Both the position numbers and the translations under genes were made by a program. A stretch of DNA of 64,000 bases from Escherichia phage vB_EcoM-S1P5QW, in the sequence record OL956808.1; one strand, given 5' to 3'. A model generated the notes under the pieces. That model ran no database searches. It saw only the letters and a list, made by a program, of their open reading frames with translations, and was not told where the DNA came from. Below, piece by piece: positions 31,718 to 33,514 of the stretch; within the stretch, counting starts at the first letter, position 1; every line of letters begins with the position of its first letter.

Positions 31718-31923
31718 AATTTGATTTCTACGCGTGGCAAAAAGCCGGGAGACCGGCTACTCGAGCATTTGGTTCTGATGGATATAATATTAGAGCCCAT
31801 TGGAAATTTAATGCTCCAGAAGATTATTCTCCGGTAATTATTAACGGCGATGTTGTTATATTAACTAAAATCGGGTATTTTAACGTTCCGCGAGAATTTA
31901 TTATAAATAATCATGTAATTTAA
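31714..31923 (+). CDS. hypothetical protein
   Basis: 69-aa ORF, ATGA overlap. Confidence 0.4.
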   Translation: MKFDFYAWQKAGRPATRAFGSDGYNIRAHWKFNAPEDYSPVIINGDVVILTKIGYFNVPREFIINNHVI

Positions 31924-31939
31924 ATAAAAGGAGAATTAC

Positions 31940-32197
31940 ATGGCTAGTACTCGCGGTTATGTTAATATTAAAACATTTGACCAAGCAGTTGATGGTGGTA
32001 CAATTCAGGGTAAAGAAATTTCTGTAGCTTTCCCTCTTTATTCTGATGTTCACAAAATTTCTGGGGCTCATTATCAGACATTTCCTTCAGAAAAAGCAGC
32101 ATATTCAACAGTATATGAAGAAAATCAGCGTGCTGATTGGATTACTGCAAATGAAGGTCTTTGGACTGTTACGCCAACTCCAGGTATTGGTGATTAA
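31940..32197 (+). CDS. soc: small outer capsid protein Soc
   Basis: 85 aa, recognised as T4 Soc; followed by hairpin terminator. Confidence 0.8.
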   Translation: MASTRGYVNIKTFDQAVDGGTIQGKEISVAFPLYSDVHKISGAHYQTFPSEKAAYSTVYEENQRADWITANEGLWTVTPTPGIGD

Positions 32198-32204
32198 AAT
32201 TTAA

Positions 32205-32228
32205 GGAATCCTTCGGGGTTCCTTTTTT
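32205..32228 (+). terminator. rho-independent terminator after soc
   Basis: GGAATCC-TTCG-GGGTTCC then TTTTTT. Confidence 0.65.
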
Positions 32229-32294
32229 CGTTTTTGCAGTTTACTTTCCAAAATGAGTATGGTATAATAGAATTATCTTATAGAGGAGAGCACT

Positions 32295-32501
32295 ATGTTA
32301 AATCGCTGGATTAAACCAAATGAAGATTTAGATATTATCATTTCACGGCATGTAATGAAGAAATATGAATTGCAACCATGGTCTACAGAAGTTGTTGTGC
32401 ATTCATTTATGATGTACGCAGATGGTTCTGTCGAATTTAATGCAGAGATTCGATATGATTATGGTGAAAAGCAAGTCGAATTTCAAAGAGGCTTTTTGTA
32501 A
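32295..32501 (+). CDS. hypothetical protein
   Basis: 68-aa ORF. Confidence 0.4.
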   Translation: MLNRWIKPNEDLDIIISRHVMKKYELQPWSTEVVVHSFMMYADGSVEFNAEIRYDYGEKQVEFQRGFL

Positions 32502-32842
32502 TGTTTATCTTTAATTGGTTTAAAAATTTCTTTACAGATTTTTTCTCTACAACTCCGGGAGAAGGTGTAGTTCCTATTTCAAATGACTATCTTCCTTTAA
32601 CTGTAGTTGAATATGTTTATATGGGAGATGGAACAGTAGAAGCAGTTACTATGACTTATGAAGAAGCCCAAGAATATTATAAAAATCCTTGGCGCTGGTC
32701 AGTACCTACTACATCATCTAATGCACAGAATACACAGTCTAGTTCTGATTCATATGACACCAATGTTCCTGTTCATGTATGGGCAGGTGATTCATGTGGA
32801 AGTTCTTGTGATTCTAGTTGTTCATCTACATCTTGTGATTGA
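32501..32842 (+). CDS. hypothetical protein with Cys/Ser-rich C-terminal tail
   Basis: 113 aa; C-terminus [15 protein letters not shown]. Confidence 0.4.
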
Positions 32843-32850
32843 GGAAAATT

Positions 32851-33336
32851 ATGGAAGCGATTTTGTTTGAAATGTATATTAGCAGTAATAGCATGTCGTT
32901 TGCTAAAGATGTTCCAATTACTGTAGCCGTAGTGATTGATAAGGGTTATTGTAACCCTATGTATCTCGTAGAAAATTTCGTTTCAATGCCAGTTCCAGAA
33001 GATGTTGAAATAAAACTTAAAAAGATCGGAATTATTGAAACTGTGCCAAATAGTCCGTTTAGAGCAATTGAAGCATTTACTAAATCCGAATACATTAATG
33101 TTAGCGCAGAACAATATAATGGTAATCCTTTATCTTTTTATTCGTACGATTCAGTATATGACTGGAAAATAAATGAAGGAAATAAATTTATAATTGCGAG
33201 TGAAGATGCTTTATCATACTTTATTTATTATGTATGGAATAATTTAAATCCAAAATTGCTAAAAATTCATGAATTTGACGATGCTCCTACTATTGTTTTA
33301 GGTAAAACAAATGAAAGTTCTGAAGAAGATGCTTGA
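32851..33336 (+). CDS. hypothetical protein (possibly Mrh)
   Basis: 161 aa from ATG with GAGGAAA SD; size and position fit T4 mrh. Confidence 0.4.
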
Positions 33337-33514
33337 ATGGTTCAATAGACCAAACTCAATGTATATTGACGATGGTTGGGTTGAACAGGCAAATAAAGAA
33401 ATGCAGAACGAATCGGAAGAATGGATGAAATCAATGATTAGTGCTGAGAAAGAAAAGAAATTAGAACGCTCAGCACTTAAATTGATGAGAGACATCTATG
33501 GGGATAAATCATGA
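33329..33514 (+). CDS. hypothetical protein (start uncertain)
   Basis: ORF overlapping end of previous gene. Confidence 0.3.

Follow-up and report, generated by a model that had tools for sequence, protein, structure and literature searches.

The catalogued T4 genes mrh.2 and mrh.1 in an Escherichia phage and the conserved cysteine/serine tail of Mrh.1

The two small open reading frames that lie between soc and mrh in Escherichia phage vB_EcoM-S1P5QW are the catalogued, uncharacterised T4 genes mrh.2 and mrh.1. Taken together, the evidence is very probably best explained by two T4-type coding genes that are coupled to each other and transcribed as a unit from an early promoter. Within Mrh.1, comparison of family sequences indicates that the C-terminal tail is the most constrained segment of the protein among T4-like phages of Enterobacterales, and this cysteine/serine-rich tail is neither hypervariable nor a chance run. 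Positions are those of the window, by which we mean the whole 64,000-nucleotide stretch of DNA that was analysed (Table 1).

Identity, distribution and expression of the gene pair

The stretch was assigned to Tequatrovirus. A megablast search with positions 31900-33400 matched 504 phage records, all Tequatrovirus-type, with a query coverage of at least 80% in 492 and ECML-134 as the closest record (98%); both small ORFs were found in approximately 500 phage records. The first-pass annotation listed no T4 genes at this position, which is wrong: in the T4 record (NC_000866) the interval from soc to mrh holds precisely these two genes, mrh.2 (207 nt) and mrh.1 (342 nt). The synteny comparison that the same annotation had proposed bore this out, the order soc, mrh.2, mrh.1, mrh being common to the annotations of T4, T2, ECML-134 and Aplg8, and srh comes next after mrh on the + strand. 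A known T4 ortholog, which that annotation had itself named as a refutation, was found for each protein (97% identity in both cases), and the claim of novelty fails.

The Mrh.1 encoded here is equal in length to T4 Mrh.1 (NP_049642, UniProt P20706) and identical to it at 110 of 113 residues, from which it differs only by three substitutions (N9S, V68T and A75T relative to T4); the C-terminal 20 residues are the same in both. Mrh.2 has 68 residues in either phage, 66 of them identical to those of T4 Mrh.2 (NP_049643, UniProt P20704, 'Y01J'), with two substitutions, and its gene overlaps mrh.1 by 1 nt just as in T4. The exact Mrh.1 sequence is already public in phages PaulHMueller and SHBML-50-1, and public databases already contain exact copies of both proteins. 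DUF7206 (PF23836) matched Mrh.1 with 104.1 bits against a cut-off of 25.6, aligning residues 3-113 to model positions 1-107 of 107, and PHROG 2031 matched with an E value of 1.8e-33. Mrh.2 matched PHROG 1873 over its full length (E 1.2e-36), and PF26878 is precomputed on all Mrh.2 homologues; the Pfam scan run on the window protein did not itself return this family. Both genes are already known: they have been annotated since T4 was sequenced and have Pfam and PHROG families. Pfam, NCBIfam and PDB sequence searches returned nothing beyond the DUF match for either protein, sequence profiles retrieved no relatives of solved structure for Mrh.1 or Mrh.2, and the literature searched for mrh.1, mrh.2 and DUF7206 yielded no functional study. 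A T4 structural-genomics paper covers Mrh, not Mrh.1 or Mrh.2 (PMC8076793).

Table 1. Features of the soc-mrh interval and its flanks, with their positions in the window
Feature	Position	Strand	Basis
soc (small outer capsid protein), upstream neighbour	31940..32197	+	Pfam Soc 149 bits; PHROG 1715; annotation in relatives
Intrinsic terminator after soc: 9-bp stem, UUCG loop, T run	32203..32234 (hairpin 32203-32224)	+	Terminator scan
Early-type (sigma-70/T4) promoter: GTTTAC, 17-nt spacer, TATAAT, TG upstream of -10	32239..32268	+	Promoter scan
mrh.2, 68 aa, ATG start	32295..32501	+	97% identity to T4 Mrh.2; PHROG 1873; PF26878
mrh.1, 113 aa, ATG start	32501..32842	+	97% identity to T4 Mrh.1; Pfam DUF7206; PHROG 2031
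Mrh.1 residues 1-15, N-terminal amphipathic aromatic helix (predicted)	32501..32545	+	AF2 helix 4-15, pLDDT 52-58
Mrh.1 residues 34-66, conserved core: beta-hairpin E-Y-V-Y-M-G-D-G-x-x-E-x-V, then helix (predicted)	32600..32698	+	pLDDT 74-83
Mrh.1 residues 67-93, Ser/Thr/Asn-rich disordered spacer (predicted)	32699..32779	+	pLDDT below 50
Mrh.1 residues 94-113, conserved C-terminal motif	32780..32839	+	Family alignment, substitution pattern
Overlapping 70-aa ORF, not a gene	32658..32870	+ (+1 frame)	pN/pS
mrh (modulator of rpoH), downstream neighbour	32851..33336	+	Pfam T4_MRH 143.6 bits; PHROG 1234; annotation in relatives

Searched as a single sequence with HMMER against 1.84 billion representatives, Mrh.1 retrieved almost nothing beyond its close relatives. 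A profile search gathered 125 clusters, and all the named ones came from T4-like phages, with Escherichia, Salmonella, Enterobacter, Serratia, Cronobacter and Edwardsiella as named hosts; tblastn added phages of Klebsiella, Citrobacter, Kosakonia and Erwinia. The long contigs in the profile-search set measured 160-178 kb. Family statistics were calculated from 122 cluster representatives, of which 115 were intact and the other 7 were fragments or frameshifts. Gene order was retained in the Karamvirus locus and in a T4-like contig of approximately 173 kb (L020), where soc, the small gene(s), the DUF7206 gene, an MRH-family gene, Y01E and a Mod ADP-ribosyltransferase follow one another and the order runs on to a Dda-like helicase. 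The Winklervirus locus has no MRH-family gene, Y01E or recognisable soc, and the Mod ADP-ribosyltransferase stands directly after the DUF7206 gene. In all loci examined a small upstream gene overlaps the start of mrh.1, by 1-11 nt. In Tequatro-, Mosig-, Dhaka- and VR5-like phages this coupled gene can be recognised as a homologue of Mrh.2, and in PEi20 and L020 it matches Mrh.2 weakly (E ~2e-4); the Karamvirus locus has an Srh-like gene in its place, and the Winklervirus locus an unrelated one.

The soc terminator folds as RNA with an energy of -12.1 kcal/mol (z = -3.25), compensatory changes in relatives preserve its stem, and the record of phage Aplg8 annotates a terminator at the same position. 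A search of the region for RNA elements gave only a sub-threshold match to TarB, which fell on this terminator. The promoter downstream of it scored a 10/12 match plus the TG, its hexamers are kept in the T4, T2, JS98-like and VR5-like loci, and a GAGGAG Shine-Dalgarno sequence lies 6 nt ahead of the mrh.2 ATG. The promoter serves the mrh.2-mrh.1-mrh-srh unit, restarting transcription past the soc terminator, and the two small genes are part of an early gene block consisting of mrh.2, mrh.1, mrh, srh, modA.x and modB. In a time-resolved omics study of T4, the RNAs of mrh.2 and mrh.1 were both classed as early, Mrh.2 (Y01J_BPT4/P20704) was quantified by mass spectrometry in infected cells, and the protein class of Mrh.1 was given as NA (PMC9697503 supplement). 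The absence of Mrh.1 from a trypsin-based proteome is expected, because its predicted tryptic peptides are 8, 53, 4 and 48 residues long.

Coding status and the overlapping frame

Neither the mrh.2 nor the mrh.1 ORF is a chance frame. We computed pN/pS on five equal-length Tequatrovirus mrh.1 alleles, with differences summed over pairs, and obtained values in the mrh.1 frame of 0.06 for codons 1-66, 0.22 for codons 67-95 and 0.00 for codons 96-113, as against 1.41 and 0.98 in the two alternative frames over the matching span. The first-pass description of two coupled ORFs between the soc terminator and mrh is confirmed, the mrh.2 stop and the mrh.1 start sharing one base (in TAATG).

The notion that the ORFs are spurious, or that the real gene is the 70-aa ORF overlapping mrh.1 in the +1 frame, can draw on that ORF being open in all Tequatrovirus loci examined and on the rare frameshifted or truncated mrh.1 variants, and it retains a negligible probability: over the span of the overlapping ORF, pN/pS reached 1.41 when read in the +1 frame and 0.12 when read as mrh.1, distant relatives have no such ORF yet conserve the Mrh.1 protein, and Mrh.2 has been seen by mass spectrometry. 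The overlapping ORF was dismissed as a gene because of this high out-of-frame ratio, and its absence in distant relatives likewise rules it out. Loss or frameshifting of mrh.1 in close relatives, which would have pointed to a spurious frame, is confined to rare broken copies (P0005, P0006, P0008, P0009 and L009), and intact mrh.1 is far commoner, with 515 members in one 90% cluster versus 1-7 members for the broken forms. Such copies fit the location of the gene in the 39-56 region, within which viable deletions exist; the small, non-essential immediate-early proteins described for this region go by the name of 'monkey wrenches' (PMC6071114).

Domain layout of the two proteins and the tail of Mrh.1

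Mrh.1 was modelled with AlphaFold2 on a 59-sequence alignment, which gave a weak model (overall pLDDT 58) containing a helix at residues 4-15, a hairpin with strands at 34-40 and 46-52, a helix at 53-66 and disorder from 67 to 113. The aromatic, hydrophobic N-terminus noticed at first pass is evident in the translation. The corresponding family motif is M-x-x-[WF]-[LIF]-K-x-[LF]-F, with the pattern [WF]-[LIF]-K-x-x-[LF] present in 101/115 intact members, and within the window W-[LIF]-K occurs in the first dozen residues of mrh.2 and mrh.1 only, among 192 ORFs. The hydrophobic moment of this segment (0.49-0.69) is comparable to or higher than that of the membrane-targeting helices of MinD (0.45) and MreB (0.58) from E. 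coli K-12. When a profile HMM of the motif was run on MinD, FtsA and MreB, it aligned best at the membrane-targeting helices themselves, at only -1.5 to 3.4 bits. The predicted helix may instead pack on the core of Mrh.1 or bind a protein.

The same N-terminus, used as an HMM, ranked Srh N-termini first among non-family ORFs, at E values above 1 with the lone exception of one Karamvirus Srh-like protein (E 0.054), which is no more than suggestive of an N-terminal module common to Mrh.1 and Srh. Srh itself matches residues 244-279 (region 4) of sigma-32 (RpoH) with an E value of 2e-5 in pairwise comparison, whereas the best E values for Mrh.1 and Mrh.2 against RpoH were 0.5 and 3.1. Mimicry of sigma-32, as proposed for Srh, was also considered for the 'RpoH box' and the N-terminus of Mrh.1, and rejected, BLASTP against E. 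coli RpoH being negative for both Mrh.1 and Mrh.2.

The core is the best-modelled part of Mrh.1. Residues Y40, G42, D43 and G44, all located on the hairpin, are invariant across the 59 sequences, and the motif [YWF]xY[MIV]GDG, which reads EYVYMGDG here, is present in 110/115 intact members. The spacer that follows is the variable, indel-prone part of the protein, with the highest pN/pS of the three segments (0.22) and a sequence and length that diverge widely between relatives. No tandem repeats were found that would indicate DNA-level slippage as the source of the serine run or of the spacer indels. In one 164-aa variant (P0003), the spacer has acquired a mosaic, Mosigvirus-type insertion of 51 aa, yet an identical tail is still read in frame.

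Mrh.2 is predicted with confidence (AF2 pLDDT 92.8) to be a compact, small alpha+beta domain comprising a helix at residues 10-23 and strands at 31-40, 46-54 and 61-67, and its N-terminal nonapeptide MLNRWIKPN is invariant in the family alignment. A Foldseek search with this model retrieved nothing significant. Cystatin-fold matches had 5-14% identity, and membership of the cystatin superfamily was rejected: that fold is a five-stranded antiparallel sheet around a helix, whereas the Mrh.2 model has three long strands only and lacks both QxVxG (loop 1) and PW (loop 2). By eye, W-[LI]-K is seen at the N-terminus of both Mrh.1 and Mrh.2, and each has a DG(S/T)VE hairpin; paralogy of the two was rejected on an hhalign comparison of their profiles, which produced a 5-column match at a probability of 0.5%. 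Mrh.2 would most likely bind or inhibit a host protein stoichiometrically, with the invariant nonapeptide and the first hairpin as its putative contact surface.

All cysteines of Mrh.1 fall at residues 99-112, inside the last 15 residues. Two S-C-D triplets are present here, S102-C103-D104 and S111-C112-D113, the second of which forms the C-terminus. Tequatrovirus proteins carry four cysteines in 14 residues with the spacing C-x3-C-x3-C-x4-C, of which C99 and C107 are extra, Tequatrovirus-specific cysteines; MAFFT placed the first conserved cysteine at 103 or at 107, depending on the sequence set. Across the family, the protein ends in C-D in 113 and in C-N in 2 of the 122 representatives (115/122 in total), exactly two cysteines occur among the last 30 residues in 109/115 intact members, S-C-D stands at the penultimate cysteine in 100/115, and at least two S-C-D triplets are present in 96/115. 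The two tail cysteines are separated by 4-10 small residues, and the last 20 residues are composed of 45% Ser, 17% Asp, 15% Gly, 10% Cys and 8% Tyr. The Cys/Ser-rich end reported at first pass is thus genuine and strongly conserved, and the suggestion to ask whether it is conserved or hypervariable can be answered in favour of conservation, the hypervariable part being the spacer upstream.

It is conceivable, with a low probability in our estimation, that the tail has no specific chemistry; it would then be an acidic, Ser-rich disordered stretch that acts as a spacer, aids solubility or serves as a DNA- or phospho-mimic, with cysteines kept by descent. The tail is indeed modelled as disordered (pLDDT below 50), BLAST masks it as low-complexity, and long, unrelated Ser-rich proteins (P0010 and P0013) match it. 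The conservation of the tail argues the other way. Two cysteines and a terminal Asp/Asn are retained in 115/115 intact representatives, down to approximately 30% identity, whereas the adjacent spacer changes freely. Codons 96-113 showed 18 synonymous and 0 non-synonymous differences among the five Tequatrovirus alleles (pairs summed). Extra tail cysteines have been gained independently in several lineages (Tequatrovirus, P0076 and P0145). At aligned positions beside the tail cysteines, serine is encoded by AGY in some lineages and by TCN in others, as predicted by selection on the amino acid.

Candidate functions and comparison with known systems

The strong conservation of the Cys/Ser C-terminus makes a specific role of the tail, such as metal binding, plausible. 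We tentatively propose that Mrh.1 is a non-essential early host-takeover protein that combines an N-terminal docking helix with a twin S-C-D tail acting by thiol or metal chemistry, a proposal that we put forward as a possibility short of an even chance. Mrh.1 would be one of the dispensable 'monkey-wrench' proteins made early in infection; its N-terminal helix would dock onto the inner membrane or a partner, and the flexible spacer would present the thiol/carboxylate tail. We favour thiol chemistry because two invariant Cys-Asp pairs, variable spacing and repeated, lineage-specific extra cysteines occur together, and the most likely form of it would be ligation of a metal (Zn or Fe). With two cysteines family-wide, a single chain could not supply a mononuclear Cys4 site by itself; the metal might be bound between two Mrh.1 chains, or the tail might engage a metal site on a host protein. 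In Tequatroviruses the number of tail thiols would have doubled to four.

A narrower version of the overall explanation, drawn by analogy and in our view improbable, is that Mrh.1, tethered to the membrane, would inhibit or modulate a zinc metalloprotease of the host, for example FtsH, with the Cys-Asp C-terminus plugging the catalytic zinc in the manner of a cysteine switch and so altering the turnover of sigma-32. Lambda CIII and B. subtilis SpoVM are small FtsH inhibitors with amphipathic helices, and the predicted Mrh.1 helix resembles membrane-targeting helices; the terminal thiol and carboxylate are invariant, and mrh.1 adjoins mrh and srh, the latter encoding the protein that resembles sigma-32 region 4. 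This adjacency carries little weight, because synteny is globally conserved in T4-like phages, and Mrh.1 and Mrh.2 themselves show no sigma-32 similarity. The case for FtsH is purely inferential.

More doubtful still is a tail that serves as a substrate for covalent modification, either as a RiPP-like precursor with a Ser/Thr/Cys-rich core, as in lanthipeptides, thiopeptides, azoline peptides and Cys-Asp thioether ranthipeptides, or as a decoy acceptor for a transferase of host or phage origin. The Ser/Asp/Gly/Cys/Tyr-rich last 20 residues do stand behind a 'leader-like' conserved N-terminal part, and in some ranthipeptides Cys-Asp pairs are the cross-linked residues. Among the neighbours of mrh.1 in four genera, however, Pfam identified Soc, MRH, Y01E, the Mod ADP-ribosyltransferase and a Dda-type helicase, with no YcaO, LanB/C/M or radical-SAM/SPASM maturase. 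NCBIfam, whose models include many for RiPP precursors, gave no match even at E values up to 10 for the T4-, RB69- and Karamvirus-type proteins and only low-complexity noise for the PEi20-type protein. Mod ADP-ribosyltransferases are Arg-specific, and the Mrh.1 tail has no Arg.

Lipidation of the cysteine run, raised in the first-pass annotation, is very unlikely: apart from the presence of cysteines nothing speaks for it, acylation of bacterial lipoproteins requires an N-terminal signal peptide with a lipobox cysteine, and the N-terminus of Mrh.1, which looks like a cytoplasmic protein, consists of a short amphipathic segment followed by PGEG, with no signal peptide, h-region, cysteine or lipobox ([LVI][ASTVI][GAS]C), all cysteines lying in the last 15 residues.

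To return to the proposal of an early host-takeover protein with a thiol-bearing tail, its boldest form, to which we assign little probability, is that Mrh.1 represents a new kind of small phage effector, in which a membrane-docking helix is joined by a flexible spacer to a twin Cys-Asp warhead that captures metal or blocks a metal site in a host enzyme (e.g. FtsH, the protease that controls sigma-32), and for which Mrh.2 may be a co-translated partner. If true, the orphan gene pair beside mrh and srh would have a function after 35 years. What is added here to the existing annotation is descriptive and modest: the twin S-C-D C-terminus, the predicted amphipathic N-terminal helix, the variable spacer and the predicted fold of Mrh.2, together with an account of why Mrh.1 escapes trypsin-based proteomics. 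Mrh.1 is among roughly 130 T4 proteins that are still uncharacterised, and these features make cheap, concrete experiments possible.

Both ends of Mrh.1 can be set beside known systems. At the N-terminus, E. coli MinD (KGFLKRLFGG), FtsA (GSWIKRLNSWLRKEF) and MreB (MLKKFRGMF) each have a short terminal helix with a similar pattern of the [WF]-[LI]-K-x-x-[LF] type, and these terminal amphipathic helices bind membrane; the likeness to the Mrh.1 helix is one of pattern, with weak scores and without homology. At the C-terminus, SlyD and SecA have metal-binding tails, and such tails, like metallothionein-like segments, are likewise flexible, Cys-containing and Ser-rich; no metallothionein or metal-tail profile in Pfam or NCBIfam matched Mrh.1. 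The Mrh.1 family differs from these metal-binding tails in having two family-wide cysteines, each followed by Asp and spaced by x4-x10.

Variation and shared segments in Mrh.1

The Mrh.1 variant P0003, from Escherichia phage 235Ecol030PP, was a 164-aa protein of the T4 type carrying a 51-aa insertion that matched the middle segment of Mosigvirus/RB69-like Mrh.1, EEIIRQPEKAGNVG...LNSKKLKEHLD (compared with loci L010-L013). The conserved C-terminal tail was still in frame despite this insertion, and at the sequence level P0003 looks like the product of mosaic recombination within the spacer. At the other end of the protein, the N-terminus of another family member, P0120 (MKMNPLPWIKSWFETKP), was nearly identical to that of the Srh-like proteins encoded by Karamvirus and PEi20, which begin MKLNPLPWIKNWLSQP, and the RB69-type Srh N-terminus, MRITSWLKDWL, was also similar to that of Mrh.1. 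The N-terminal helix may therefore be a module common to, or swapped between, the Srh and Mrh.1 families, although the statistics behind this were weak, with E exceeding 1 in most cases.

Locations of features in the window and in related loci L016 and L021
Feature	Location	Strand	Remark
Small ORF, 66 aa	31517-31717	+	between gene 56 (dCTPase) and soc
Small ORF, 69 aa	31714-31923	+	between gene 56 (dCTPase) and soc
Rfam TarB match	32161-32233	+	covers soc 3' end and terminator
soc terminator stem	32203-32224		
+1-frame ORF, 70 aa	32658-32870	+	overlaps mrh.1 3' half and mrh start
mrh	32851-33336		3' end overlapped by srh
srh	33311-33514		starts 26 nt upstream of mrh end, in a different frame
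Soc/GDSL protein, 504 aa	L021 2224-3738		Enterobacter-phage-like contig
Srh-like protein	L021 3789-4004		compared with P0120
Srh-like protein	L016 1044-1259		compared with P0120

Overlapping frames and srh

The +1-frame ORF was uninterrupted in every Tequatrovirus locus examined. It was ruled out as a coding gene by its substitution pattern (pN/pS 1.41), and its openness probably results from the serine-codon composition of the mrh.1 frame. Pairwise comparison matched Srh to residues 244-279 of E. coli RpoH (region 4; E 2e-5), consistent with its description in the literature as a "sigma-32 decoy".

The soc gene and its flanks

Across the window and the homologous sites in its relatives L003, L010, L012 and L014, a base change in one arm of the soc terminator stem was matched by a compensatory change in the other, as in GGAATCC/GGGTTCC, GGACTCC/GGAGTCC and GGGAACC/GGTTCCC, and the UUCG loop and T run were retained. 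At 27 bits, the match to the Vibrio sRNA TarB fell below the Rfam gathering score of 80; it almost certainly reflects a coincidental similarity to a terminator hairpin. In L021, an ordinary 82-aa soc adjoined the gene for a protein with Pfam matches to both Soc and GDSL lipase/esterase, a possible fusion of a capsid-decoration protein with an enzyme.

Upstream of soc, T4 carries the homing endonuclease gene segF, whereas the window has two small ORFs at this site and the phage therefore lacks segF here; T2 and ECML-134 likewise have two small ORFs between gene 56 and soc.
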